From NCBI GenBank assembly GCA_964372025.1, contig CAYJPF010000003.1:3334-67333 (forward strand): a DNA stretch of 64,000 nucleotides, in the 5' to 3' direction. Source of the stretch: an uncultured Peptococcaceae bacterium. Lineage in GTDB: Bacteria > Bacillota > Dehalobacteriia > UBA4068. The notes beneath the pieces were generated by a model, which saw nothing but the letters and a program-made list of their open reading frames with translations, searched no databases and was not told the DNA's origin. Position 1 is the first letter of the stretch, and the number at the start of each line of letters is the position of its first letter. Made by a program: the position numbers and the translations under genes. Shown here piece by piece: positions 2,256-51,777 of the stretch.

Positions 2256-2720
2256 ATGAATAAAAGAAGAGAAACAGCCTTTGGCAAAAAAGTGTACCTA
2301 TTGGGCAAAGACCATGAAGGCATTTTATACTGGCTCGAAGAAAGTCAATGGGAATGCGACTGGTACTGGGGCATGGGGTATGTTGAAACTTACACTAATA
2401 ATAAGTATCCACACCTTTCGAGGGACATAAATAGCCACCAGCACTTTGATGGACTATTCTTTAATGGTAGAGTTGATGGGCACACTGCATGGAACAATTT
2501 CTTTGCCGAAAGTGTTTTATCGAGCAAAGAGTTATGGACGCTCATGGAACTCATGAAGACTGCATATACTTTGCAAGAAACTGCGGCAGTGCTCGGCAGA
2601 GGTGGCTCGCATTACACTGCAAATCCATGCGCTGATGTCAAACGTATCAACGAGGTAGTTTTGCCTGCGATATTTGAACAGGTGTATGAGTTTTTATCAC
2701 CAGAGGGAGGATTGAAATGA
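2256..2720 (+). CDS. hypothetical protein (154 aa)
   Basis: ORF with RBS; Trp-rich, no motif. Confidence 0.5.
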   Translation: MNKRRETAFGKKVYLLGKDHEGILYWLEESQWECDWYWGMGYVETYTNNKYPHLSRDINSHQHFDGLFFNGRVDGHTAWNNFFAESVLSSKELWTLMELMKTAYTLQETAAVLGRGGSHYTANPCADVKRINEVVLPAIFEQVYEFLSPEGGLK

Positions 2721-3091
2721 CGATTACTGAATACATAGCATTACACGAAACCGATATCGGCATCGAGGCCTTTGACCCTATAGTAACGGTAATCACCTCA
2801 CCTTCCGGTAGCTTAGAGCTGACACTTAAACAGATTGAATACTTGTCTCGCAAGTTGGATTTTACAATCGAAAAAATAATACTGCACAATAATGGGCACA
2901 GATTAGAGGCGGAATTCAAGTGCCCAAATATTATGTTTTTTGCCTTAACCAATGCTGCCAATAAGCTCGAAGAAGAAATCGAGCGCATGAGCAAAGAAAT
3001 AGATGAAAAAATGACAAAGCGCAAAAAGTTGACAAAAGAACTTGATGAAGAAATCCAAACACTTCAAAAAATAAAGGACGGTCTGAAATGA
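2717..3091 (+). CDS. hypothetical coiled-coil protein
   Basis: ATGA overlap with upstream gene; C-terminal K/E-rich heptad region. Confidence 0.5.
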   Translation: MTITEYIALHETDIGIEAFDPIVTVITSPSGSLELTLKQIEYLSRKLDFTIEKIILHNNGHRLEAEFKCPNIMFFALTNAANKLEEEIERMSKEIDEKMTKRKKLTKELDEEIQTLQKIKDGLK

Positions 3092-4591: not shown

Positions 4592-6703
4592 ATGGAAATT
4601 GAAATGAAAACAAACGAAACCTCTACAAAAGCTCGCTTTAAAGAAGGCGACAGAGTAAGAGTAACCCGACCCATGGCGATGACAGTGAACTGGGTTGAGC
4701 CTATGGCAAGACATATGAACGAAGTGTTTACCGTAAAAGAAGTCGTTTCTGACGGATATTTCTTTGTAGAACCGCAACACGGTCACCACGAGCGAATTAA
4801 GATGACCGGCAACTGGTGGTGGGCAGATGATTGCTTAGAACTTGAAAATGCAGTAGTACAAGCACCCGAAGAACCTAAGTTGCCGATAGAGAAACCGACT
4901 GAACCTCATAAGTATGCCACGGAAAACGCACAGTTTCTATCCGATTATCCGACTCGTGTAGACCAAATCAGATACTACACTCAAAAAGCTGTTGAGCACT
5001 TCGACCACAAACGTATCGAAGATGATTACAGCTACTCCGGCGTTGAGACAAATGTCGAAGCGTGGTATGACAGCAAACTGCACCTATTTGAGGCGTTCCG
5101 AAATCACCCGCTCTGGAACGAAGAGGCAAAAGCGGTTATAACGAGCGTAGCTATCGAGTACAAACCGCGTTATGTTGACTTTGATAATTACTTTAGGAGA
5201 CTTGTTGAATATAATGCCCAAAGCTCAAACTCGCCGCTGATGCAAAATACCGCTTATCGAGAAGGTGCGGCTAATTGCCGGTCAATCCTTACTCGTTACG
5301 TTAAATGTGGCGTAACAACAATCACTAAAGACTTTATAGACGGAGATGCAAGCACTCCAATCATGAACGGTATGGGCGTGGAGCTTAAAGCCGGACAGAA
5401 AGTCACGAGAGCAATAAACGCATGGCTTAAAAAGCTCGGAGCACACGGCACTCCGTTTGCAAACTCGGAAAACCATTTTATGAAGTGTCACCACGGCGTT
5501 CCGATGGATTTTCACGGACATACCGTAAAAGCTAATTATGTTTATGGAATATATGACAGATACCCGTTTGTTTCTGGCGACGAAGTAAACCGCATGGGCA
5601 TTGAAAAACGTTTACAAATGTATGTTAAAGTCGGCAGCAGTTGGAGCGCTCGAGAAGTTTCCGAAGAAGTTCGCGAAGGCGTTAGAGCCATTCACTACAA
5701 CAAAGTGTTTGCTCAAATGTGCGATGCTATGGTGGCTAAGACAGTCACGCAACCCTACGTTATATCGTTTAACTTCATGGACTTCCTAACTGTATCTAAC
5801 GGGAACTCGTGGTCTTCTTGTCACGCTCTCGATCGTAGCTATCGTGCAGGCGTTCTCTCGTATGCCAACGACGAAAGTTCTGCGGTAACTTATGTGCTCA
5901 GCAAGGAATACACCGGCAACGAATGGTGGGCTGAGCCGAAGGTTAATCGTCAGATGTACCACTTTGACCAAAACGGCGATTGTTTCCTTCAGAGCAGACT
6001 ATACCCGAACGACAACGCAGATGATATTTACGAACCTCTAAGGCACATTGTACAAAAGGCACAATCCGTTGCCTATGCTCGTGCAAATGCGTGGCAAATC
6101 TCTCGTAAGAGTAGAGAGTGCATTTATACTCACGACGATGCTCTGGGCTACAAAGATTACGAAGAGGGCTATAACTCGGTATTCTCCAGCCGTAAAGGTG
6201 CAGATAGAGCAAAAATGCGCATTACTATCGGTGCTCAAGGCTATTGTATCTACAGTGGCGATGACTTGCAGGATAGCGACTCTCTCAACTGCAACAGCGG
6301 CATGACGAAGTGCTATAATTGCGGTAACCGTATTGACGAAGACGATGCAATATACATTAACGACGAATATTACTGCACCGACTGCCTTAGCTACTGCGAC
6401 CACTGTAATGAGTATGTGTTGCCCGGCGACATCGTAGAAGATAGCAGTATCTGTGAAACATGCTATCGCGATGATTATTTCACTTGCGACCACTGCGGAA
6501 GTATTTGGCATAACGAAGATAGTTGCTTTGTTGACGGTGAGGATACTTATGTATGCCCAGACTGTTTGACGGAGTATTACTTCCAATGCGAAGAGTGTAG
6601 CAGGGTGTACACTAACGATGACAGACACGATAGATTGACACACATGTGCGAAAGCTGTGGTGATGAAGCTACAGAAAACGCTGACGAAGAAGGAGCGGAA
6701 TAA
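4592..6703 (+). CDS. large multidomain protein (703 aa)
   Basis: N-terminal SH3-like paralog domain (FKEGDRVRV...WWWADDCLEL), central unknown domain, C-terminal array of about six CxxC zinc-ribbon repeats. Confidence 0.6.
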   Translation: MEIEMKTNETSTKARFKEGDRVRVTRPMAMTVNWVEPMARHMNEVFTVKEVVSDGYFFVEPQHGHHERIKMTGNWWWADDCLELENAVVQAPEEPKLPIEKPTEPHKYATENAQFLSDYPTRVDQIRYYTQKAVEHFDHKRIEDDYSYSGVETNVEAWYDSKLHLFEAFRNHPLWNEEAKAVITSVAIEYKPRYVDFDNYFRRLVEYNAQSSNSPLMQNTAYREGAANCRSILTRYVKCGVTTITKDFIDGDASTPIMNGMGVELKAGQKVTRAINAWLKKLGAHGTPFANSENHFMKCHHGVPMDFHGHTVKANYVYGIYDRYPFVSGDEVNRMGIEKRLQMYVKVGSSWSAREVSEEVREGVRAIHYNKVFAQMCDAMVAKTVTQPYVISFNFMDFLTVSNGNSWSSCHALDRSYRAGVLSYANDESSAVTYVLSKEYTGNEWWAEPKVNRQMYHFDQNGDCFLQSRLYPNDNADDIYEPLRHIVQKAQSVAYARANAWQISRKSRECIYTHDDALGYKDYEEGYNSVFSSRKGADRAKMRITIGAQGYCIYSGDDLQDSDSLNCNSGMTKCYNCGNRIDEDDAIYINDEYYCTDCLSYCDHCNEYVLPGDIVEDSSICETCYRDDYFTCDHCGSIWHNEDSCFVDGEDTYVCPDCLTEYYFQCEECSRVYTNDDRHDRLTHMCESCGDEATENADEEGAE

Positions 6704-6704
6704 C

Positions 6705-7889
6705 ATGACATTTTTTGATATAGTTAAACTCAAACAACATGAACTCAAGCAACAGCTACACGCTGAACTGCGCAAGCATTACGACCAAAGTGACATCAAG
6801 TTTTGCCGAGGATTTCTATACGCTGAAGGCGATATCCCGGTCATGGTAGTCGCTCACCTCGACACAGTACACCGCAAGCCTGTAGAGACTGTATGTGTTA
6901 GCGACGATGGGCGATACGTGATGTCTCCACAAGGCATAGGCGGCGATGACAGGTGTGGGGTATACATTATACTTCAACTTCTCGAACGCTATGGCATTAA
7001 GCCGTATGTACTCTTTACAGAGGACGAAGAAGTGGGCGGTATAGGTGCAAGGATGTTCACCAAGAGCACATTCATGCCAGACTTGAAATATATTATCGAG
7101 TTCGACAGGCGTGGTGATAATGATGCTGTGTTCTATGACTGCGACAATCCTGCGTTTACCGCTTTCGTTGAGACATTCGGTTTCCGTGAAGAGTACGGTT
7201 CGTTCTCGGACATATCTTATATTGCTCCACATTTGAAAGCAGCAGCAGTCAATTTATCTTCGGGCTATTTCAACGAGCACACATTACATGAGATGGTAGA
7301 TTTGGTTGCGGTAGAGGACATCATTAAGCGTGGTGCAAAACTCGTAATGGCACACGATACGGTATCTGCTTATGAGTACATCGAACATGTCTATGTGCCC
7401 AAGCATTACTCATACCGCAATCAGCATAACTTCACCTCCACTTACGCTAAAGGATATGCTGGCGGAGGACTCTATCCTCATGACGAAGAGGAAGACGACA
7501 AATACGAATTTTATTTTCAAGATGATGCACCGAAAAAAACATTACTCGAAACTGAAGTAAGCTATGAGATGGAACTGCGAATTCTATGCGACGATGAATA
7601 CTATTTAAAAGATAGTGAAGGGCATTTCTACATGCCGGATTACTCACATATGGGTTGCGTAGACTCTCGCGGTAGGTTTTATGTAGCGATGGATGTAGGC
7701 GCTACGGACTTTAGCGAAGAATACCCTGTCTTTATCGGCACAGAGTTTACGGTAGTCAGTGAAAGCTTGGGTACGATTATGGCGGTAGAAGCAAACGAAG
7801 ATAATATCTTTGGCGAAATCTGGAGTGAAGCCGACTATGAATGGGAGTTCGGCATACCTTTGGATATGGCTGTAGAGCTGATTGCGTAG
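6705..7889 (+). CDS. M20/M42-type metallopeptidase-like domain protein with C-terminal extension
   Basis: Motifs VMVVAHLDTVH, GGDDRCGV, FTEDEEVGGIGA match the His-x-Asp / Asp / Glu-Glu metal ligands of MH-clan aminopeptidases. Confidence 0.55.
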   Translation: MTFFDIVKLKQHELKQQLHAELRKHYDQSDIKFCRGFLYAEGDIPVMVVAHLDTVHRKPVETVCVSDDGRYVMSPQGIGGDDRCGVYIILQLLERYGIKPYVLFTEDEEVGGIGARMFTKSTFMPDLKYIIEFDRRGDNDAVFYDCDNPAFTAFVETFGFREEYGSFSDISYIAPHLKAAAVNLSSGYFNEHTLHEMVDLVAVEDIIKRGAKLVMAHDTVSAYEYIEHVYVPKHYSYRNQHNFTSTYAKGYAGGGLYPHDEEEDDKYEFYFQDDAPKKTLLETEVSYEMELRILCDDEYYLKDSEGHFYMPDYSHMGCVDSRGRFYVAMDVGATDFSEEYPVFIGTEFTVVSESLGTIMAVEANEDNIFGEIWSEADYEWEFGIPLDMAVELIA

Positions 7890-13521: not shown

Positions 13522-13550
13522 TTGACAGCATGAGTAAATCGTGCTACAAT
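13522..13550 (+). promoter_or_regulatory. consensus sigma70 promoter TTGACA-17-TACAAT
   Basis: TTGACA 13522-13527, TACAAT 13545-13550, 17-nt spacer ending aTCGTGC. Confidence 0.55.
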
Positions 13551-26632: not shown

Positions 26633-28039
26633 TTATATTCTTTCGTATAGATAATACCGCGGGCTTCTGTTTGCACAATCAAGTTCCAACGCTTCCCAAG
26701 AAGTATAGAAGTAATCTCCATTGATTTGCACGTATTTAGAACGATACGAAGAGTCGAACTTCCCGTCATACATATAAGCATCAGCACCCATCACAGTGTC
26801 GTTAATCATAGCCGCAAGGAAGATGTAATGCCCTCCGGTAGAAAAGATGCCGGTGTGACCAGACCTATCTCCACCTACATTAGCAATAACAGCTCCACCG
26901 CGCTTCAGAACCAACTCAGCTTCTTGCCAATCGCTTGTAGTCTGATAATCAACATCCCACTCGTCAGCTACTGCTTCAGAAAGCGTCTTCATGTTTGTTC
27001 CACCTGACACTCTTGCACCACACTCTAAAGCCAGCTCAACCATGCCCTCAACATCTACATTAAAACCCAAGCGAGACAGTACCATAGCCATAGAAGTAGG
27101 GCCACAACCACCGGATGCAACAGTTGCACTCTCGTAGCCCGGTGCAGGGTAAGGCATATTAGGGTAATCTCTTTGATTGAATACAGTAATGTCAGGCTTG
27201 AACTTACTTAAGCTTAACACAAAAGCAGCTCTGTAACCACTGGAAGTAGGATAGTAAATCCTTATTAGTCCATTGATAGTGACATCTCCGATAGCACATA
27301 CGTCACCTTCGGAAATATACCTTCCGCTCTCTATCAATCCAGCTTCGGTGTAAACAGACTGTTTCTCCGTTGAAACTAAAGTTACTTCTTGGTAGTACTC
27401 TGTATCTTCGGGCGGATGCGGCTCTGGTTGTTCTTCGGGCTCAGGCTCTACTATTGCAGGCGCATCATCATAAGCAACAACAGCGTTATATAGATAGTCC
27501 CTTGTGCTGGTGTCATGCCATTCACCTTCAAACAATAAGTACCTGCTTCCACCACCATCGTGATTAGACATGCTTACCATACCTGCGGACATAGCCTTAT
27601 TGCTAAATTGTTCTAAAGTGGTACCTTCATCAACCATGATTACATAGCAATCACCGTTAGCATCCATAGCGAAGCCTATACGATTAGGCTGTGAGTTAAA
27701 TGCAGGGTCACTCCAACTGGGAGGAACATACTTGCCATTGACTACGCTGCCTGTGAACCCGGTAAAGTATTCGTTCCAACCTAACCATGGAGTGCCAAAA
27801 CCAAGAGCTCCATCCTTAGTTATCCCCATACCATAACCATTGCCAGAGTCTTTTACTTGCTTGCCATCCTCAATGATTGTGCCAAGCGGAATGTTCCCTG
27901 TTTCTTTAGACCAATGCACAAATGAACCTGAAAACATAATCACAGGTTTTTCTTTTTGAGCGTTGTACCACTCTGTAGGCGTTTTGCCGCCGAGCCTCAC
28001 AACATCCCATCTTAATCCCTTTGGTAGCTTAAACTTTTT
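26633..28039 (-). CDS. two-domain protein: N-terminal phosphodiester-glycosidase-like domain + C-terminal C39-like cysteine peptidase domain (monocistronic moron)
   Basis: C-terminal GGCGPTSMAMVLSRLG ... GHYIFL (Cys/His dyad of Peptidase_C39_2-type); N-terminal assignment tentative; GTG start with AAGGGG RBS. Confidence 0.55.
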   Translation of the reverse strand, partial: KKFKLPKGLRWDVVRLGGKTPTEWYNAQKEKPVIMFSGSFVHWSKETGNIPLGTIIEDGKQVKDSGNGYGMGITKDGALGFGTPWLGWNEYFTGFTGSVVNGKYVPPSWSDPAFNSQPNRIGFAMDANGDCYVIMVDEGTTLEQFSNKAMSAGMVSMSNHDGGGSRYLLFEGEWHDTSTRDYLYNAVVAYDDAPAIVEPEPEEQPEPHPPEDTEYYQEVTLVSTEKQSVYTEAGLIESGRYISEGDVCAIGDVTINGLIRIYYPTSSGYRAAFVLSLSKFKPDITVFNQRDYPNMPYPAPGYESATVASGGCGPTSMAMVLSRLGFNVDVEGMVELALECGARVSGGTNMKTLSEAVADEWDVDYQTTSDWQEAELVLKRGGAVIANVGGDRSGHTGIFSTGGHYIFLAAMINDTVMGADAYMYDGKFDSSYRSKYVQINGDYFYTSWEALELDCANRSPRYYLYERI

Positions 28040-28074
28040 CACGTCAAAACCCCTTTTCAATTTAGTATGACTTT

Positions 28075-28587: not shown

Positions 28588-29133
28588 TCAAGCCATGTAA
28601 TGAAAATAACAGTAAATACGCTCGTAAGGTTTTTTACCGCTATCTTCGTCAAACAAAAAGTCCTTAGCCAGCTCAACAAAAAAGCGAGCTTCACCGGTCA
28701 TTTCAGCAATCACAGCACTGCGGTAGTGGTCGTGCCACATAGCATTTAGGACAGCCCAGAACTCCATCTCTGTAAGGTCTGTCATGTCTACGCCATACTG
28801 CTTGCCCACGGCAGTAGTTTGTTGCATGTTCCAGTGTGCGCCCATATGCTTAGCACCGTTAGCTGTATGCCACATTCCGGCTACCCAGTCCTCAAGTTCT
28901 TTATCGCTCAAACGCATTTCGTGGTCTTCGCTATGCATTTCTGCGTCAGGGTAGGTAGCACCTAAAACTTCTGTGTGATAAGTTTTCCAAAACTCACGAC
29001 TACGCATAAGCTTACAAAACTCATACTCATGTACTACTTCGGCTTTCATTGCCGTAGTAAGGGGCATACCTGACTTGATGTCCTCTTGAAGCATTTGCAG
29101 TTTTTTCTCTGCATCAACGCAAGATTTATACAT
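28588..29133 (-). CDS. hypothetical His/Trp-rich protein (181 aa)
   Basis: AGGAGG 8 nt before second in-frame ATG (MYKSCVDAEKK...). Confidence 0.5.
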   Translation of the reverse strand: MYKSCVDAEKKLQMLQEDIKSGMPLTTAMKAEVVHEYEFCKLMRSREFWKTYHTEVLGATYPDAEMHSEDHEMRLSDKELEDWVAGMWHTANGAKHMGAHWNMQQTTAVGKQYGVDMTDLTEMEFWAVLNAMWHDHYRSAVIAEMTGEARFFVELAKDFLFDEDSGKKPYERIYCYFHYMA

Positions 29134-29314
29134 TAGTTTTATCCTCCTGTGTTTCATCTTCGCTTAGCACAGCGTTCATGTCTATGCCAAGCTTGTTTTT
29201 AAGCACCTTGTCGCCCATCTTTAATGCCATCTTGCTGGTGCTTTCAACTATCTTCCGCCCTTCAGCCGTTGTGAATAGGCAAGCAAAAGTAGCTCCCATT
29301 ACAAACTGCTTCAT
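29126..29314 (-). CDS. hypothetical small protein
   Basis: 62 aa from internal ATG; weak RBS. Confidence 0.35.
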   Translation of the reverse strand: MKQFVMGATFACLFTTAEGRKIVESTSKMALKMGDKVLKNKLGIDMNAVLSEDETQEDKTNV

Positions 29315-31416: not shown

Positions 31417-31582
31417 AATTAACACACCTTTCTTTGTTGCAGCGACTGAGTGGGTGCAGGTGTGATACACCCACGTCTGCCGCCGCTATATACATGGGGG
31501 GAAGGAACGGGAATAAAAAACTCCCTACCTTGATACTACAAGATAGAGAGTATATTCATAAGTACTCTAAAGGTACTAATTA

Positions 31583-32932
31583 TTATTTTTTCTTTTGGTT
31601 TTTCTTTAGCTCTGGGAACACCTTAGCAACCTCACCAAAGTAGTTCTTACACGTTTGTTCAGAATAGCCAATCTCTAAAGAGACCTGCTTCATTGTCATG
31701 TTATCCACACAATACATTAAGGTTATCTTCTCGTGTAAGTTTCTAAAACCAGCTTCATTAAGTTTTAGCTTCAACTCATGTTTAGGTGAAAACAACATCT
31801 TTAGTTTAGCAATGAAGGGTTTGTCTGCTATATAATCAAATGCCTCTCTTATCATATACAGAATAAAGTCAACAATCAGTGCGACGATAACTGTGTTGAA
31901 GATAGAGAAAGCAATTCCGGTTGTATTAAATAACGCTACACACAAAGTGATTGTAGTGATACATACGCAAGCAATCTTGACCAGATTAGCTCTAATGTTA
32001 GGAATATAGTCTGCGTGAAACTGCTTTGGAAATAGCTTTCTTAGTGCTAAGTATGCAACGTAAAGAAAAACTGCCTCAACTACTCTGCCTATAAAGTACG
32101 CATAAAGCAAGTACAATCCATAGACAAATATAAGCGGAGGCAAATTCTTCTTCAAGTCGTGCCGAAACTCAAGCTTCAGGTAATGCTTGAAGTTCTTCGA
32201 GTTCCGTGTGAAGCTTGTGCAAACGCCAGCGAATATACTCTTTTTCGCTTTCGTCTGTCGAACCTTCAAAGCGCTTGACAAGGTTTGCAATGCTTCCTTG
32301 AATACGCTTGCGCTCTTCTTCCATGAAGCCGAGGCCCCATCTAAACACAATAGCCATTTGCGTCCACCTACCTTTATATTTATTAGAGTTATAATCCATA
32401 AAAGATAATAGTCAACAGAATATATCGCAGACATTGCAAAAGACTGTGATTGTTCTATTAAAGATAAATTAAGAACAAACAGCGAACAAAAACTGAAAAT
32501 GCTATCTAAAACAAACAAGCACATCGTAGGCGCAAGGCGCTTCGTAAATAATAACGGAATTGCATAAAAAGAAAAACTTAGAATTGCTACTAACACATTC
32601 CATTCTTCCCCTGCGAATAAAGTGTTGATAACAATTAAATAAGATGTTACAAAAGTATTAACAATTAAGGCTCTACTTTTGTAATTTGGGATAACACAGG
32701 CGTACATTAGGTTAATGCCTATCATGCCCTTGATTACGTTAATTATACCTCTCGCCCAGTCGTTGCTGTCTACAAAATAAATAAAAGCGTTGAGTCGAGA
32801 ATTAGTTATCTCTACACCAAACGCTTCTATGCCGAAAAGCTTCAGTGTAAACGTAGCAAACAAGAACACCCAACACAAGGTTAGCACTCGACTCATTATA
32901 GCCGTGAAATGTGCTCTTGTCATAATAGTCAC
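31583..32932 (-). CDS. polytopic membrane protein with C-terminal sigma70-region4/LuxR-like HTH
   Basis: multiple TM helices at both ends; C-terminal MTMKQVSLEIGYSEQTCKNYFGEVAKV; hydrophilic central linker contains an alternative-frame ORF. Confidence 0.5.
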   Translation of the reverse strand: MTIMTRAHFTAIMSRVLTLCWVFLFATFTLKLFGIEAFGVEITNSRLNAFIYFVDSNDWARGIINVIKGMIGINLMYACVIPNYKSRALIVNTFVTSYLIVINTLFAGEEWNVLVAILSFSFYAIPLLFTKRLAPTMCLFVLDSIFSFCSLFVLNLSLIEQSQSFAMSAIYSVDYYLLWIITLINIKVGGRKWLLCLDGASASWKKSASVFKEALQTLSSALKVRQTKAKKSIFAGVCTSFTRNSKNFKHYLKLEFRHDLKKNLPPLIFVYGLYLLYAYFIGRVVEAVFLYVAYLALRKLFPKQFHADYIPNIRANLVKIACVCITTITLCVALFNTTGIAFSIFNTVIVALIVDFILYMIREAFDYIADKPFIAKLKMLFSPKHELKLKLNEAGFRNLHEKITLMYCVDNMTMKQVSLEIGYSEQTCKNYFGEVAKVFPELKKNQKKK

Positions 32933-33015
32933 ACCTGCTTTATAATTGAGGGAGGCCGCCGCCCGGCGAGAAACGACGACCTCGGAGGTTTTAAATGGAA
33001 TCCAACTGTACCTTT

Positions 33016-33044
33016 ATAGTAGCACGATACCCACTATTTGTCAA
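33016..33044 (-). promoter_or_regulatory. minus-strand promoter TTGACA-17-TACTAT
   Basis: -35 at 33039-33044, -10 at 33016-33021 (reverse complement); spacer ends aTCGTGC as in promoter at 13522. Confidence 0.5.
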
Positions 33045-33095: not shown

Positions 33096-33572
33096 TCACT
33101 TAGCTCTTTTTTCAAGCTTATTAAAGCTTTCAATCCATGTAGGCATCGTTCCATTGCCATTGCTCTTTTCATAAGCATTGTAAAGTTTAATTACCGTCTC
33201 TACTTCGTCATAGGTGCTGTACCCACGTTCTAAAGCTCGTGTAATCAAATAATGCAGTCGTTCGTGAAGCACGGCAATGTTTGCTTCCTGCAATGCCGGA
33301 AGATTGTCTGCAACAGCGTTTAAACTTTCAATCGCTGTGGTTAGCTTGACAATCTGTCCGCTACAGTCTTTCCGGCATTGCAGCCCTGTTTCTAACTTTT
33401 CTCCCATCACTCTTACCTTTTCTTCAAGAGTTGCAATTTTGTTGTTTTGCAATCGTTTGTCTTGAATACGCCTTGCAATTTTCTTGCAAAGAGGGACAAT
33501 AATTTTTGCCAAAGTTAAATACGCACCTCCAATAATGCCAATTAACCCTGCAGCCTCTACAACTTCAAACAC
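33096..33572 (-). CDS. TM + coiled-coil protein, paralog A (holin-associated)
   Basis: N-terminal TM, C-terminal ERGYSTYDE...NGNGTMPTWIE..NKLEKRAK; paralog of 33594-34085. Confidence 0.5.
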   Translation of the reverse strand: MFEVVEAAGLIGIIGGAYLTLAKIIVPLCKKIARRIQDKRLQNNKIATLEEKVRVMGEKLETGLQCRKDCSGQIVKLTTAIESLNAVADNLPALQEANIAVLHERLHYLITRALERGYSTYDEVETVIKLYNAYEKSNGNGTMPTWIESFNKLEKRAK

Positions 33573-33593: not shown

Positions 33594-34085
33594 CTAACTG
33601 GCTCTTTTTTCAAGCCCTCCGTATACTTCCATCCACTTTGCCATAACGCCGTTACCATCGTTTTCTAAATACGCTCGGTGCAGATTGTGGATAACATCAA
33701 ACTCGTCAAAAGTCGTATACCCACGCTCTACAGCCTTTGTAATTAAATGATGAAGCTTGTCGTACATCATAGCAAGATTTGCCGCTTGAAGAGCTCTTAA
33801 CGCAGGTCTGAACCCTTCTGCTTCTTTAATTAACTCCTTTAAGGCGATGCTGTCTTCTTCGTACTTTTCGTCTAATTCAGCACCGGCTTTTACTGCCTCT
33901 TTCAACTCCCTCAAAACCTCCTCCAACTTGGCTATGCGTTCGCCTTGCATTTTTGTTGCCTGTCTTGCATCCCACCATCTACGAATGGGAGGCATGATTA
34001 GTTTTTGAACGGCTATAATGGCTCCGGCTACAATTGAAATTCCACCAAACCAGCCAAGTATTACGTCCATTTGCAAGCTAATCAT
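33594..34085 (-). CDS. TM + coiled-coil protein, paralog B
   Basis: C-terminal ERGYTTFDE...NDGNGVMAKWME..GGLEKRAS collinear with paralog A. Confidence 0.5.
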   Translation of the reverse strand: MISLQMDVILGWFGGISIVAGAIIAVQKLIMPPIRRWWDARQATKMQGERIAKLEEVLRELKEAVKAGAELDEKYEEDSIALKELIKEAEGFRPALRALQAANLAMMYDKLHHLITKAVERGYTTFDEFDVIHNLHRAYLENDGNGVMAKWMEVYGGLEKRAS

Positions 34086-37551: not shown

Positions 37552-40500
37552 TCAATAGGGCAGTAGCCTAAAGTCTAAGCTACTATATCCCGACTGTCTT
37601 TTCGTAGGTGTAAGATTTACTACTGTATTGTTCGTTGTGCGGGTGTTGTTGTAGTTGTTTTGAGAACCGGTATAACCTGAGCTTCCGCCGGGACTTGTAG
37701 GCATAGAAGGTGTCATCTTCTTCTGTTCTTCTTGGAATTGCCTTAGAACCGCAGCAAAATCTTCCGAGATAGGCTGTATCCAGCCATCACGCCATGCTTC
37801 ATACAAGATTTGAGCACTGCTCTCTCCAACTGATACCATGCCGTGGATAAAGATATCGTCTATCTCTAACCTTGCAGGGTCTGCCCATTCCTCTCCAAAG
37901 ACTTTAGATAGGTCTACAGCAGCAAGTTTGTTGTCTTTCTCCATCTGTTCAAGAACATCAGCCCACATCTTCTCGGCTAAATCGGTAGCCGGTATCATGT
38001 AATCTGTTTTATAGCTCTCCAGCAAGGCTTGATTGTCGTAGGATAGGTTATCCGCATCCAGCTCATTAACTTCATCTACGAGGGCAGATAAAGCGTCAAT
38101 AAGCCTATCAATGACTTCAAGCTCAGCATCTCTTAACGACTCAAGTTGCTCAATCTGGTCATCAATACGCCAGTCCTCAAGTTGCTCATTCCAATCCTTG
38201 TTGATATCAGAAATCTCTTCCATGATATCAGCTTCTTGTTCACGGTACTCTACACCGCTTCGAGCAGAAGCTTCAGCCAAAGACTTACTTGCTTCATCAA
38301 GACGCTCATAGTACTCTTCCTTAGCACGTATACGGTCGTTCTCTTGTTCGACATCCCTAAGCGCATCAATCTGAGCCTGATACCTGTCCTCAATAGCTTC
38401 TTTTTCGCGCTCTAAAGCTTCGATATTAAGCTCAAAGTTCTTTGTTATCTCTTCTTGGGTTTCTGCAAAATTAGACTGTATCTCTACAATTTCATTCTGC
38501 AAGTCCCACCAAGCGGTACTGTTAGCAAGGATGTCTGTAGCATACTCGTTAGGGTCAATAGCACGATATAAATTATTGACCTCGTGTAGTTTCTGCTGTA
38601 TAATCTGAAGCAATGCTACTTGCTCTTCGTCAGATGCGCCTCTTGCTCTTGAAAACTCCAACTCTGCTTCAGCTAAAGCCAAAGCCTCTTCTGCAGCTGT
38701 GATGCGTGGGTCTTCCGTGTCGCTACCGCCATAGCTATCATAGCTGTACGTATCGCCGGAAACATCTGGTAGCTGTACCCCAGCTTCAAGGTTGGCAAGC
38801 TCTTCTTGTATCTGACCTACCATGTCTAAAGCTGAAAGATATTCTTGCTCAGCAGCGATAAAGTCTGCGGTAGCTTCCTCTGCCAAAGAAGAAAACCCTT
38901 TGCGAATGTTAGCTATTTGGATATCTTTTTCGGCTTGTTCTGCAACATTAAGCCACTTCTCCAGCTCTGAGGTAAGCCCTTCAACATTAGTAGAAACAAC
39001 AAGGTTATTGACATTCATACCTTGTGCAAACAAAGCCGAAACCATTTGTGCCTGAGTAAGCAAGCCCTCGGTAGCTTCTTTCATTTGCTCGATACGAGTA
39101 ATAGCGTCTACTATTTCGTTTCCGACATCAACCCAAGCATTAGCGTAGTCCTCTAAGACTCCATTAACGATATCTTGAAGTAACTCTCCAGCCTCTCCAT
39201 TCTCTCGTATATACGCCTGCACATAGCTTTGAATAGCATCCCATGCTTCGCCTTCGCCCTTTACTCTTGCAGCGTTATAAGCATCAAAGTATCCGGACAT
39301 AGCATCTATTGCGTCTTCTACTTCAGCACCGTATAGCTCTTCTACTTCAAGTGCGGCTATCTGGGCTTTTCTTAGGATGTCATCGTTGATTGTATCCCAA
39401 TGCTCCTGATAGTCAGCTTCATATTCACTCATACGAGCTTCAATCGCAGTATATACTTCCTGAACTTCCGAAGGCCATTCGCTGAAGTCCATAGTGTATT
39501 GCTGATTTAACAGTTCCTGCAAACGCTCTAAGTTTTTGTAGATATCAAGAGCGCTGTCTCCAGAAATCTCAAAGGTTCTAAAAAGCTCCTCACCCTTAGA
39601 GTTGATTGTATCTATAGAGCCACCTACCTGTTCAATAAGGTGCTCTATTTCGGTAAGCTCTGGTACAGACTCTCCAAAAGTAAATCCTGTACTTTCAGAT
39701 GACTCCATAAGAAGCCCGCCTTGTTCGTTAATACGATTGGCGTTTGCAACTGCAACTTGATTTTCTATTTCTAAAGCTTTAAGTCGCTCTATAGACTCTT
39801 GCGCTATAAGAGCTATACCAGATTGACGACCATCGTTAAGCTTCTCAATCTGTTCTGCCTCAAGTGCATAAGCTTCAGTGACATCTTTTACCCAACCGCC
39901 AAGAACCTGCCTCTGAGATGCTTCTTCAGTCTGTAATAGCACTGTAGACTTGTACTGGTCTGACAGTTTTTGCATAGCAGAAAGCTCGTCAAACACCTCT
40001 TGTGCTCTATCATTAGCAGCAACAGACATCTCGCGTTGTTTTTCGTTATAATCTTCGATGGCACTAACTATTGCGTTTACAGCAAGAGTGCCGATAGCAA
40101 AGGCGGTAGTCCAACCAGTTATACTTTGGCTAAGAGTTTTGCTGACTTTAGCTGCTGCTTCTACGTTTGGATTGAACTTATTTGCTATGTTTTTTCCAGC
40201 ATTAACAAACGCAGTCCCAACACCACCAATAAACTTAGCAATGTTCTCTTGTTTGATAAGCAAGAAGGCTATCCACACTGCATTGAGCAGAGAAGGTATA
40301 CCACCGATTACGCCTACAAACTTTACAAGTTCGGTAAGCGCAGAAGTTAATCCTTTGAAGAAACTTAGTCCGCTCTCTTCACTAAAAGCTACTGCCAGCA
40401 ATTCAGCTTCATTACGCAGTACTTGGAAACGTACAGCAAGTGTGTTCATAACCTTGACGTTTTCTTCAACTGAATAATTAGAAGCAGTAAGCATACCCTC

Positions 40501-41757
40501 AAGAGCCTTCTCATAGGTGTCCGTACTACCCAACAAACCTATAAAGTAATTCTGCCTAAGAGTACCTGCTGTAGTATAAACGTCCGTAATTGTAGAGGTA
40601 ATATCAGTAGCTTCGGCTTCTAATTGGTCGGCAAACTCACCATACGCCTCAGATGCAAATAATTCATTGAGTACAGCCTGACGCTCTACGTCTAAATTAT
40701 TTATCTCTACAGATAGTGCCTGCCATACTTCAGCTATAGATGCTGCGCCCATTCGGTATCGTTCTACCGTGTCAGCAACGCTACCGCCCAACTGGGCAAA
40801 TACGTCTAAAGAAGATGCACGTGAAGAAAAGTTAATCAAAGAGTTAAGCGCCGTACCAATATTAGCACCGCTACGACCAAGCTCTTCAGACATACCTGTA
40901 ATCAAAGCTATAGTAGATTGCAAAGACAGTCCTGCGTTATCAGCCGCACCACCGGCACGTTGCAAAGCATCGACTATTTTTTCTGAAGTAACAGGAAAGT
41001 TATCAGCAGTTTTGTTTATCTGGTCGATAATGCTTTCCATATCGGAAGCTTCAAGGTTAAACTGAGAGATAACAGCGATAAGCCCTGTTGTAGCATCCTC
41101 AACTTCAAGCTCAGCAGTGTTAACTGCAAGCATGGTAGCACGAGTAAGGTCAAGCACTTCAGCCCACTCAGCACCTGTCTGAGCAAACTTAACAGCCGTA
41201 TCAGATACTTCTTCAAAAGTACGACCGAACTCAATAGCCATATCATAAAGTTCGCCCTGAATAGCTACATCGCCGACATCTTCGTTCAAAACCCTCTGGA
41301 GCTCAACAACAGCCGTTTCGGTTTCAGTGATAACCCTTAGTGTCTCGGTAAAGGCTTCTTTAATTTGGGTGACTAAATAGAACGCCGCCAACCATCTGGC
41401 TTTGTCTGTGATTGTTTTTAAAAACTGAAAAGATGCTCCTTCAGCCTTGGTCGTTGCATCGCTAATGTCAACCATAGACTGTTTGTGTTTAGCTGTTTCA
41501 GGAGCCTGACCCTTATAAGCATCAGTGGCACTTTTAGTAGCCGTAGCAAGTCTCTCTGTGCTTTTGGCAGCTTTATCTACAGCATCACTACTGCCGCTCT
41601 CAACGCCTAATGCCTTATTGAGGTTAATCTGATACTGCGGGTCTGAAGCCATATCTGAGGCAGCTTTCTGAAGGGCAGCCTTTGCCTCGAGAATATCTTG
41701 GTTAAATTGGGTTAAGTCTAAGCCTACCGACGTAAGCCTTGTTAATCCGTCGCTCAC
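37552..41757 (-). CDS. tail tape measure protein (1401 aa)
   Basis: length, extreme helical A/E/L composition, TP901-type core (FQFLKTITDKARWLAAFYL...LISQFNLEASD...LSLQSTIALITGMSEELG). Confidence 0.85.
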   Translation of the reverse strand: MSDGLTRLTSVGLDLTQFNQDILEAKAALQKAASDMASDPQYQINLNKALGVESGSSDAVDKAAKSTERLATATKSATDAYKGQAPETAKHKQSMVDISDATTKAEGASFQFLKTITDKARWLAAFYLVTQIKEAFTETLRVITETETAVVELQRVLNEDVGDVAIQGELYDMAIEFGRTFEEVSDTAVKFAQTGAEWAEVLDLTRATMLAVNTAELEVEDATTGLIAVISQFNLEASDMESIIDQINKTADNFPVTSEKIVDALQRAGGAADNAGLSLQSTIALITGMSEELGRSGANIGTALNSLINFSSRASSLDVFAQLGGSVADTVERYRMGAASIAEVWQALSVEINNLDVERQAVLNELFASEAYGEFADQLEAEATDITSTITDVYTTAGTLRQNYFIGLLGSTDTYEKALEGMLTASNYSVEENVKVMNTLAVRFQVLRNEAELLAVAFSEESGLSFFKGLTSALTELVKFVGVIGGIPSLLNAVWIAFLLIKQENIAKFIGGVGTAFVNAGKNIANKFNPNVEAAAKVSKTLSQSITGWTTAFAIGTLAVNAIVSAIEDYNEKQREMSVAANDRAQEVFDELSAMQKLSDQYKSTVLLQTEEASQRQVLGGWVKDVTEAYALEAEQIEKLNDGRQSGIALIAQESIERLKALEIENQVAVANANRINEQGGLLMESSESTGFTFGESVPELTEIEHLIEQVGGSIDTINSKGEELFRTFEISGDSALDIYKNLERLQELLNQQYTMDFSEWPSEVQEVYTAIEARMSEYEADYQEHWDTINDDILRKAQIAALEVEELYGAEVEDAIDAMSGYFDAYNAARVKGEGEAWDAIQSYVQAYIRENGEAGELLQDIVNGVLEDYANAWVDVGNEIVDAITRIEQMKEATEGLLTQAQMVSALFAQGMNVNNLVVSTNVEGLTSELEKWLNVAEQAEKDIQIANIRKGFSSLAEEATADFIAAEQEYLSALDMVGQIQEELANLEAGVQLPDVSGDTYSYDSYGGSDTEDPRITAAEEALALAEAELEFSRARGASDEEQVALLQIIQQKLHEVNNLYRAIDPNEYATDILANSTAWWDLQNEIVEIQSNFAETQEEITKNFELNIEALEREKEAIEDRYQAQIDALRDVEQENDRIRAKEEYYERLDEASKSLAEASARSGVEYREQEADIMEEISDINKDWNEQLEDWRIDDQIEQLESLRDAELEVIDRLIDALSALVDEVNELDADNLSYDNQALLESYKTDYMIPATDLAEKMWADVLEQMEKDNKLAAVDLSKVFGEEWADPARLEIDDIFIHGMVSVGESSAQILYEAWRDGWIQPISEDFAAVLRQFQEEQKKMTPSMPTSPGGSSGYTGSQNNYNNTRTTNNTVVNLTPTKRQSGYSSLDFRLLPY

Positions 41758-45672: not shown

Positions 45673-45858
45673 CTACATAGTAGCACGATAGTCCATGTTT
45701 GTCAAGAGCGGTTCAAGGAAGGTGATGTCGTGTATGCCATACGCTTCGCATCTTCCGTTTTCAAACTCCACTATTCCCATAACACAACTGTCTACTACTA
45801 ACCACTGAATAAAAGTAGCAATCTCGTTAGAGCCGTCTATAACGCACTGTCTATACAT
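45673..45858 (-). CDS. hypothetical small protein
   Basis: 61-aa ORF. Confidence 0.3.
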   Translation of the reverse strand: MYRQCVIDGSNEIATFIQWLVVDSCVMGIVEFENGRCEAYGIHDITFLEPLLTNMDYRATM

Positions 45859-50407: not shown

Positions 50408-50472
50408 AAAACATCACCGCCTTTTCTTAATCCAGTTGTTCATCTCAACTTTAGCACGATTTACACTTCTTG

Positions 50473-51777
50473 TCAAGCCTTGCGCCTCGCTTTGCTGTTG
50501 ACACCGGCAACCATCCCTGTATAGTGCGCTTTAAACTCAGGAACAGAGCTGTAATCATAGTAAGTAGCATACAACGCTGAAACATAGTCATCATTTGCTT
50601 CGTTAGAGTTTGAAAACTTACCGGTCTTCTCTGACTCTGTATAGTCTTCCATCTGAAAGATAAGAGATTGTATTTCCGTACTACCATCATCGATAACCAT
50701 AATATCCTCGTTCTGAACTGCCCTTTGTAGGCTTTGAACAAGCATACGCTTTTGAGTGCCCTGCTCGCCTATTGGAGTAACATTGCAGCCACGTTTTCGC
50801 AACTGCCCCTCAACAAGCATATTACCAAGAGTAAGAACGCAAATCTCGGCATTGTTATAAGACTTAGCCCAGAACGCAACCTCGTCAAGCTGGTCATCGT
50901 CAATCTTGCCGTACATGTCTATAGCACGAACTATGTTATCAGTAGACATCTCTCGTATAACAAGCACGGGCATATCTCCACTACTACCGGATGCAGGGTC
51001 ATAACCAACGCGATACATAGTAGCTACTTTAGGTTTCTGCAAATCCTGTATTTCCTTACGAAGCTCTTCTTTAGTCTTGCCAAGGTTGGCCTCATACACA
51101 TCGTGTACGCACCGCTCCTTGAAATTAGAGAACACAGTGCCACCGCTCTCTAAAAACTCAGCTCCGAAGTCCTGTCGAGCCTCTTTTCCGTATCTGCGGT
51201 ACAAGCTTTCCTTGTAGCTAATAACCTCTCCGGTTTTAGTCTTAACAGGTTGCTTAAACTCTTTGTCTATCTCGGGGTTCTCCCAACTGGGAAGCTGATA
51301 GCTAATCCAGTTACTATCGAAGTTAGGGTGGCTTCTCTGTCCCCAAGTCCAGATATTATAAAAGAAGTTCTTGCCCAGTGGCGAACTGTTAACAACAAGT
51401 CTGCCACCTTTGCCACCGATGCCTCTGCCCGGAGATTTTAGACGTGCTTCTATGTTTCTCATAACCGTCTTTAAATCTTTAACACGAGCAGCCTCAGTGA
51501 TTGAACAGAAATCAACGCCGACACCGACAAGGCTTTGAGTATCGTATGCAGACCTGCACTCAATTACACAACCGCCGATAAGCTCCATCGTTTTAGTACC
51601 GTTGGAAATATCTACAATCCACTCTTTGGGGATAAACGCTTTGAGTTCTCTCCAGTTCTGGTTTATAATACGGTCAATAGGCGCAAGTATCCAACACAGA
51701 ATACTCGGCACGAGGGTAGGCTGTTCGATATGTCTGTTCTCGTTAAGCAACTGCATAATATCGAAAATCATCTGCAT
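50473..51777 (-). CDS. terL: terminase large subunit, 3' exon (ATPase remainder + RNaseH-like nuclease)
   Basis: IGGCVIECRSA, VDFCSITEAA (Walker B-like), nuclease motif YRVGYDPASGSSGDMPVLVI; frame open upstream only to TGA at 51803-51805, so exon 2 begins no further upstream than 51802 (likely 51790-51802). Confidence 0.8.
   Translation of the reverse strand: MQMIFDIMQLLNENRHIEQPTLVPSILCWILAPIDRIINQNWRELKAFIPKEWIVDISNGTKTMELIGGCVIECRSAYDTQSLVGVGVDFCSITEAARVKDLKTVMRNIEARLKSPGRGIGGKGGRLVVNSSPLGKNFFYNIWTWGQRSHPNFDSNWISYQLPSWENPEIDKEFKQPVKTKTGEVISYKESLYRRYGKEARQDFGAEFLESGGTVFSNFKERCVHDVYEANLGKTKEELRKEIQDLQKPKVATMYRVGYDPASGSSGDMPVLVIREMSTDNIVRAIDMYGKIDDDQLDEVAFWAKSYNNAEICVLTLGNMLVEGQLRKRGCNVTPIGEQGTQKRMLVQSLQRAVQNEDIMVIDDGSTEIQSLIFQMEDYTESEKTGKFSNSNEANDDYVSALYATYYDYSSVPEFKAHYTGMVAGVNSKARRKA

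Follow-up and report, generated by a model that had tools for sequence, protein, structure and literature searches.

The 64,000-nucleotide (nt) stretch of contig CAYJPF010000003.1 analysed here (the window), a phage sequence from an assembly of an uncultured Peptococcaceae bacterium, carries on its minus strand a pair of overlapping open reading frames (ORFs). One occupies 31583..32932 (449 amino acids (aa) from a GTG), and the other lies inside it at 32169..32399 (76 aa, -1 frame). The minus strand is the strand of the long ORF throughout. We consider with good confidence that the two form an overlapping gene pair, in which one gene encodes a fused protein of two halves, N and C, and the other encodes a small embedded peptide on which an AgrB-like module in the C half may act. 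Judged from the sequences compared below, the embedded ORF at 32169-32357 is probably a genuine conserved gene that has been overprinted, and the long ORF is probably a fusion of two genes, N and C, from a three-gene cassette N - peptide - C. The gene structure itself, with one promoter-to-terminator unit holding two overlapping genes, is regarded as highly probable.

Conservation of the embedded gene

Taken by itself, a 76-codon ORF in an alternative frame is unremarkable in the window. The embedded ORF exceeds chance because it is conserved in relatives, because resampling gave low probabilities for its open frame, and because it was matched by a profile from which the window had been left out. 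This profile was built from the peptides of five relatives, with the window excluded, and was searched against 1,727 six-frame segments of the window. The embedded ORF ranked first with an E value of 1.5e-6, and the alignment began exactly at Met 32357. The equivalent profile test on the frame-0 linker gave an E value of 1.5 and no conservation. BLASTP aligned the window peptide with that of the relative L001 at an E value of 1e-6 and 31% identity, as high an identity as that of the long protein. Trained on the long genes of the window, a frame-specific Markov model favoured the embedded frame over 32141-32404 and frame 0 over the rest of the gene.

As delimited by conservation in relatives and by its own initiation signal, the embedded gene (32169..32357, -1 frame) encodes 62 aa followed by a stop codon. 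The preliminary description of this region, made from the sequence alone, had pointed to an alternative-frame ORF of 62-76 aa with AGGTGG 6 nt ahead of its ATG. This Shine-Dalgarno (SD) sequence is present at 32369-32364, separated by a 6-nt spacer from the ATG at 32357. In frame 0 the SD is read as the conserved 'GG' of a 'GG.KW' motif, so that the motif at the start of the linker is the SD and ATG of the embedded gene seen in the other frame. The product (MAIVFRWGLGFMEEER...) begins with a hydrophobic 12-residue N-terminus (MAIVFRWGLGFM), continues with acidic residues and ends in a charged, coiled-coil-like helix. Structure predicted around the internal SD was insignificant (z -0.81) and gave no sign of its sequestration.

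The frame-0 linker over the embedded gene (32169..32359) is stop-free with a net charge of +10, and its sequence is unconserved. The third reading frame over the linker is full of stops. In synonymous resampling, the probability that the peptide frame is open given the frame-0 protein was 0.0005-0.023 per locus. In the reverse comparison by codon resampling, the probability that frame 0 is open given the peptide was 0-0.0235 in six loci and 0.003-0.014 in three more. These values suggest that both frames are kept open by selection, with the peptide frames of L010 and L036 excepted. The embedded frame appears to be the sequence-constrained one, and the frame-0 linker seems only to be kept open and basic. 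Of the two options in the preliminary description, an overprinted gene or two genes read as one, the former is thus borne out by a conserved, sequence-constrained frame with its own SD and ATG. Independent initiation at this SD-ATG is the simplest reading of how the embedded gene would be translated.

One other segment of the window, at 2690-3088 on the plus strand (FFALTNAANKLEEEIERMSKEID...), matched the embedded-peptide profile at an E value of 4e-4. This match most likely reflects coiled-coil composition bias and not a second copy.

Arrangements of the cassette in relatives

An exhaustive search of every representative protein, made without a word index, retrieved 40 relatives, which were full-length (394-436 aa), N-only (about 195-260 aa) or C-only (about 170-205 aa). 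The five closest full-length relatives share 28-32% identity with the window protein. A word-indexed protein search returned only the long protein itself and no match for the 76-aa ORF, and pattern scans with the FHADYIP motif yielded no further loci.

An overlapping peptide ORF was found in all nine fused loci, the window included. It lies in the -1 frame in the window, L001-L005 and L035, whereas L010 and L036 have it in the +1 frame; L035, L010 and L036 belong to other subfamilies. The preliminary description had proposed looking for stop codons in the embedded frame of homologues; the frame is open in all nine loci, while the long frame is open there as well. The window and five relatives checked at the DNA level share the peptide pattern M-A-I-F-G-x-G-x-F-L-S-E-E/D-K, followed by a charged helix with K-K-I-x-x-I-D-x-E-I.

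Six-frame profile scans gave the order N, peptide, C wherever all three parts were detected, and at the remaining loci the peptide was located by eye. The relation of the peptide to its neighbours varies widely. It is a gene of its own past the N stop codon in L009 and L033; in the L013 group three genes lie in three frames, each overlapping the next; in L006 and the L018 group the peptide is the in-frame C-terminal tail of N; and in L008 it is overlapped in an alternative frame, as in the fused loci. At every examined locus, including those with the peptide in frame, a strong SD (AAGGAG, GGAGG or GGTGG) stands 5-9 nt ahead of the conserved ATG.

These arrangements are consistent with an ancestral cassette N - peptide - C, in which the small gene would be the older, sequence-constrained member. 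In the lineage of the window, N and C would have been joined when the peptide gene came to be read through out of its own frame. The linker, basic and cytoplasmic, may then be an overprinted by-product, kept just open and positively charged, and the SD-ATG embedded in the linker of the long gene would give a separate 62-aa product.

The peptides are largely missed by gene prediction. Of the eight fused loci with a called long ORF, seven had their overlapped peptide checked against a collection of 15 billion predicted proteins, and none of the seven was in it; the peptides of L009, which is free-standing, and L010 were both found there. At L010 a single open frame (811-2097) runs across N, linker, C and the helix-turn-helix (HTH) domain, and the public gene calls hold only a 44-aa peptide (1394-1528, +1 frame) and a 78-aa HTH piece, P0007. 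The latter is the closest relative of the window HTH, at 48% identity.

Architecture of the fused protein

The long ORF in frame 0 (31583..32932) encodes, fused in this order, an N module, the basic linker, an AgrB-like module and an HTH domain. The transmembrane (TM) segments that the preliminary description placed at both ends of the protein are seen in the AlphaFold2 models. The N module (32360..32923) is a bundle of six long helices, taken as TM helices, and one short helix (pLDDT 88.3). The C half (pLDDT 87.5) has four long helices, again TM, followed by a five-helix soluble cytoplasmic domain. The likeness of the C half to AgrB and the origin of the ORF as a fusion of two genes from a three-gene cassette had both escaped the preliminary description.

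The N half belongs to a well-conserved family and is a stand-alone gene in most relatives. It had no Pfam match, and its model had no fold match in the PDB. A structural match was found in BFVD: A0A8S5R960, with a probability of 1.00, a TM-score on the query of 0.59 and 21% identity. This protein (UniProt/BFVD, virus sp. cti5L29, 429 aa) is a fused member of the family under the automatic name 'Accessory gene regulator B'. Duplication of one half to give the other was ruled out by an hhalign probability of 2.5%.

The four-TM module of the C half (31826..32149) was recognised as AgrB-like from the matches of relatives to PF04647 (AgrB) and from the model. PF04647 was matched by 14 of 18 C-half sequences at E<1. 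Three relatives reached its gathering score of 23 (P0020, 25.7 bits; P0021, 24.7 bits; P0012, 24.4 bits), over profile positions of about 16-119 of 185. A search with the C-half profile retrieved 97 proteins, of which about 80 also have a precomputed PF04647 hit. That the window protein itself belongs to the AgrB family is therefore proposed by transitive homology via these relatives. Three residues of the module, Arg298 (32039-32041), His306 (32015-32017) and Cys322 (31967-31969), are invariant across 18 diverse C halves. They align with R70, H77 and C84 of AgrB in hhalign, at low probability and with a Staphylococcus aureus AgrB sequence. In AgrB these three residues are needed to cleave AgrD between M32 and D33 (PMC10196373). 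Gly75 of AgrB is not conserved in the C halves. The C half does not have the full AgrB architecture of about 190 aa with the complete set of TM helices, as its four TM helices are followed by the soluble HTH domain.

The C-terminal helical domain (31601..31819) is probably cytoplasmic and of the sigma-70 region 4 / GerE-LuxR type. Such an HTH had been read from the sequence in the preliminary description, and fold and weak sequence matches agree with it. Foldseek matched the domain to GerE, SigF region 4 and SigE region 4 with TM-scores on the target of 0.57-0.70 and probabilities up to 1.0, at E values of at least 0.2 for this small domain. Sequence matches were weak: TIGR02937 (sigma70-ECF) at 1.2e-4, Sigma70_r4_2 at 0.0024, ArpU at 0.0068, and phrog_36. 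A cytoplasmic location of the linker, and likewise of the Arg/His/Cys site and the HTH, is deduced from the TM helices, six ahead of the linker and four behind it, and from a linker charge of +9 to +19 in the relatives, the window among them.

Possible function of the peptide and the AgrB-like module

By analogy with AgrB, we tentatively consider a substrate-and-switch mechanism. The small protein would be produced in the cytoplasm, and its hydrophobic N-terminus may dock on the membrane complex. The AgrB-like module would then bind the small protein or cleave it at the hydrophobic-to-acidic junction GFM|EEE, and this binding or cleavage might control the membrane-tethered HTH and, through it, phage gene expression. 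Catalysis is argued to be retained in the AgrB-like module because the Arg/His/Cys set of AgrB is invariant in the 18 C halves.

Several findings weigh against an overprinted gene whose product is handled by an AgrB-like module. The C half of the window itself reached no PF04647 score, and it has a 9-residue insert between His306 and Cys322, so that the spacing of the two is 16 in the window versus 7 in most relatives. A peptide profile from the split-type loci only missed the window peptide. It did find the peptides of L010 (2e-5) and L001 (3e-4), and the homology of the window peptide to the split-type peptides is transitive because only these intermediates were matched. The open peptide frame is unsurprising given frame 0 in L010 (P 0.55) and L036 (P 0.27). 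PF05931 (AgrD) matched none of 23 peptides, for which Pfam gave coiled-coil noise only, and the peptide as an AgrD was ruled out on this ground. No conserved Cys or Ser nucleophile was found in the 23 peptides, three of which have a Cys at variable positions in the first 30 residues. Among the called neighbour genes there was no AgrC/AgrA-type partner with kinase or LytTR domains.

The main rival is a different role for the small protein: it is a real possibility, short of an even chance, that it serves as a subunit, structural or regulatory, and not as a protease substrate. As a coiled-coil adaptor it could, for example, bring two N-C complexes together or cover the HTH, and the AgrB-like module would then act on something else or merely anchor the protein in the membrane. 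A K-x-I-A-K-I-D-x-x-I block is conserved in the coiled-coil-like tail of the peptide, the missing nucleophile and AgrD match agree with such a role, and in some relatives the peptide is covalently part of the N protein. The invariance of the catalytic Arg/His/Cys across such diverse C halves speaks against it, however, as does the fact that the peptide is the only conserved small partner and that its hydrophobic-to-acidic junction resembles the AgrD cleavage site.

A more elaborate version of the substrate-and-switch mechanism, in which the cassette forms a self-contained phage peptide-signalling circuit, appears rather unlikely. The 62-aa gene product would here be a propeptide, from which a cut by the AgrB-like module at the hydrophobic-to-acidic junction would set free a short hydrophobic piece, about 12 residues long. 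Export or sensing of this piece would fall to the six-TM N module, with the tethered sigma-region-4-like HTH as the readout. If such a circuit existed, gut phages could gauge infection density or superinfection, much as in arbitrium, by an Agr-derived system contained in one polypeptide, with the signal gene in an alternative reading frame.

Alternative readings of the gene structure

The long ORF might not encode one protein. N could end in a junk tail and C could be translated from an internal start, giving three genes as in the relatives. We consider this quite unlikely. N and C are indeed separate genes in most relatives, and to that extent the two-gene option of the preliminary description was right; the sequence of the frame-0 linker is unconserved, and the long ORF of L010 was missed by the gene caller. 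Against this, frame 0 is stop-free in nine fused loci of at least four subfamilies, with a chance of 0-0.024 per locus given the peptide, and so for the window, where frame 0 is kept open as in the eight other fused loci, the two-gene option does not hold. In addition, the C module of the window is preceded by neither an SD nor an ATG or GTG, and the linker is uniformly basic, as a cytoplasmic loop should be.

The embedded frame could also be reached by programmed -1 ribosomal frameshifting from N, with an N-peptide fusion as the product. Natural N-peptide fusions do occur in L006 and the L018 group, and in the window the embedded frame is -1 relative to N. Frameshifting is nevertheless very unlikely, as the SD and ATG are kept at every examined locus, those with an in-frame peptide included. 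The peptide frame of L004 and L005 has a stop one codon ahead of the ATG and leaves no upstream room for a shift, L010 and L036 would require +1 shifts, and the junction lacks a slippery X XXY YYZ heptamer.

A chance open frame or an assembly frameshift artefact is scarcely credible: alternative-frame ORFs of 40-100 codons are common in the window and the purine-rich, T-poor linker favours open frames, but independent assemblies, whose proteins are only about 30% identical, have this frame open too, with a similar peptide and an SD-ATG. Resampling moreover gave low probabilities, and N and C are in one frame at all these loci, which a single indel error would break.

Comparison with known systems

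The overprinted cassette proposed here resembles AgrB/AgrD in pairing a polytopic membrane protein, whose Arg...His-x6-Cys set is located where helix 2 ends on the cytoplasmic side and helix 3 begins, with a small co-encoded peptide. In both systems the peptide is hydrophobic or amphipathic towards its N-terminus, then acidic, and charged in its tail. The cut in AgrD falls at M32|D33 and requires D33/E34 (PMC10196373). The cassette differs from agr in several respects. Its C half has only the first two-thirds of AgrB, with an HTH in place of the last two TM helices; the peptide gene is upstream, not downstream, of the AgrB-like module; the peptide has neither a conserved Cys nor a conserved Ser through which a ring could be closed, and it does not match PF05931; and AgrC/AgrA are absent from the neighbours. 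The cassette is phage-encoded and always has the extra six-TM N module.

The closest precedent is fsrB-fsrD of Enterococcus faecalis, in which, according to the account in PMC7028047 (citing Nakayama 2006), the propeptide gene is hidden in the reading frame of its neighbour. The in-frame family members with an internal SD-ATG (L006 and the L018 group) are similar to this pair. In contrast to it, the peptide of the cassette follows the N module and not the AgrB-like module, and the peptide of the window is in a different frame and is wholly overlapped by the read-through linker.

A recognisable set of agrB, agrD and agrC homologues of bacterial origin is carried by the Clostridioides difficile phage phiCDHM1 (PMC3901668). 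Like the window, this phage has an AgrB-family gene plus a peptide gene, but the window module is a truncated AgrB fold fused to an HTH, with a different peptide and no kinase. In the full-text literature on PF04647 and AgrB-like proteins in phages, no description of the three-part module was found.

The classical embedded spanin gene pair is Rz/Rz1 of phage lambda, in which the small gene lies in another frame of a larger membrane-protein gene by the lysis cassette. The small gene of the window is likewise wholly embedded out of frame in a membrane-protein gene beside phage lysis genes. The embedded product differs from Rz1 in having no lipoprotein signal or Cys, the lysis genes of the relatives are of the holin and amidase type, and the larger gene around it specifies a polytopic, HTH-bearing protein, whereas that of Rz/Rz1 encodes a single-pass protein with a periplasmic coiled coil. 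An Rz1-type spanin was ruled out, since a lipoprotein signal and a conserved Cys were missing in all 23 peptides.

The window thus would hold a protein-coding gene missed by standard gene calling, with an unusually clear overprinting history: relative to its neighbours, the small gene may stand alone, share their frame, or be shifted to -1 or +1, and the new frame is just a basic tether. The three-part module is an uncharacterised one that occurs in uncultured phages, of which several come from metagenomes of the human gut, and it joins a fold of the AgrB-type membrane peptidases directly to a probable DNA-binding domain. If the peptide were a substrate or ligand, the module could give phages a new way of making transcription respond to a signal from the membrane or from a peptide.

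Expression signals of the long ORF

The start of the long ORF is most likely ATG 32923, with a product of 446 aa, rather than GTG 32932. This start is favoured because AGGTG (32936-32932) is located 8 nt upstream and because the sole public copy of the protein, P0001 (NCBI, on a 70,377-bp contig), has the 446-aa form.

A sigma-70-type promoter, TTGACA-17-TACTAT, is present at 33016..33044 (-) as the preliminary description had reported, and it also has a TG extension. The spacer end said to be shared with the plus-strand promoter at 13522 corresponds to ATCGTGCTAC, which recurs at 13538 and 45680 of the window. The full motif, TTGACA-N11-ATCGTGCTAC(A/T)AT, with a consensus -35 and an extended -10, stands at several module starts. 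Besides the promoter of the long ORF it was located at 13522-13550 (+) and 45677-45705 (-), with a near-match at about 50448-50476 (-). With at most one mismatch, ATCGTGCTAC occurs 10 times in the window versus 3.6 expected. The motif is probably a phage-specific promoter class.

The leader was predicted to form a GC-rich hairpin of 13 bp (32952..32983, -) with a centroid energy of -19.9 kcal/mol. A hairpin was part of the preliminary description, which further suggested that the leader could mask a weak SD. The hairpin stands; the masking does not, as AGGTG 8 nt before ATG 32923 is not weak, and the leader fold was no better in energy than shuffled sequence (z -0.22) and gave no robust masking structure. 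An Rfam search of the leader gave no family match, and the matches to MIR169_2 and psbA are due to chance. Downstream, 32 nt past the stop codon of the long ORF, lies an intrinsic-terminator-like stem-loop with a T run (31520..31551, -).

Genomic setting

The window is phage DNA, and no cultured phage is closely related to it. Among 50,697 phage records, neither nucleotide nor protein searches gave a match for the region, the long protein or a C-only relative, and the large terminase had distant matches only. The order on the minus strand is large terminase (50473-51777), tape measure protein (37552-41757), holin (PF04531, 34107-34289), two tandem paralogues, the long-ORF unit and, downstream of the cassette, a DUF7841 gene (28588-29157). 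The cassettes of the relatives are found in the same spot, right after lysis genes for holin and amidase, and DUF7841 often follows within a few genes.

The tandem paralogues between holin and cassette (158 and 163 aa; 33096-33572 and 33594-34085, both -) each begin with a TM helix, followed by a coiled coil, and have a conserved domain at the C-terminus (phrog_4257, function unknown). The DUF7841 neighbour also occurs in L001, L005, L006, L008 and L010, and other downstream genes of about 150 aa form conserved clusters. Two further genes of the window encode a 475-aa protein with phosphodiester glycosidase (NAGPA) and Peptidase_C39_2 domains (26633-28060, -) and a 410-aa protein with weak M42/M28 aminopeptidase matches (6657-7889, +); both are unusual phage cargo or lysis-related enzymes. 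The contigs of L004/L011 and L005/L012 come from metagenome-assembled genomes labelled 'uncultured Lawsonia sp.' and 'uncultured Treponemataceae bacterium', labels that say little on the host, and their gene content is phage-like, with holin, amidase, RecT and SNF2 helicase.

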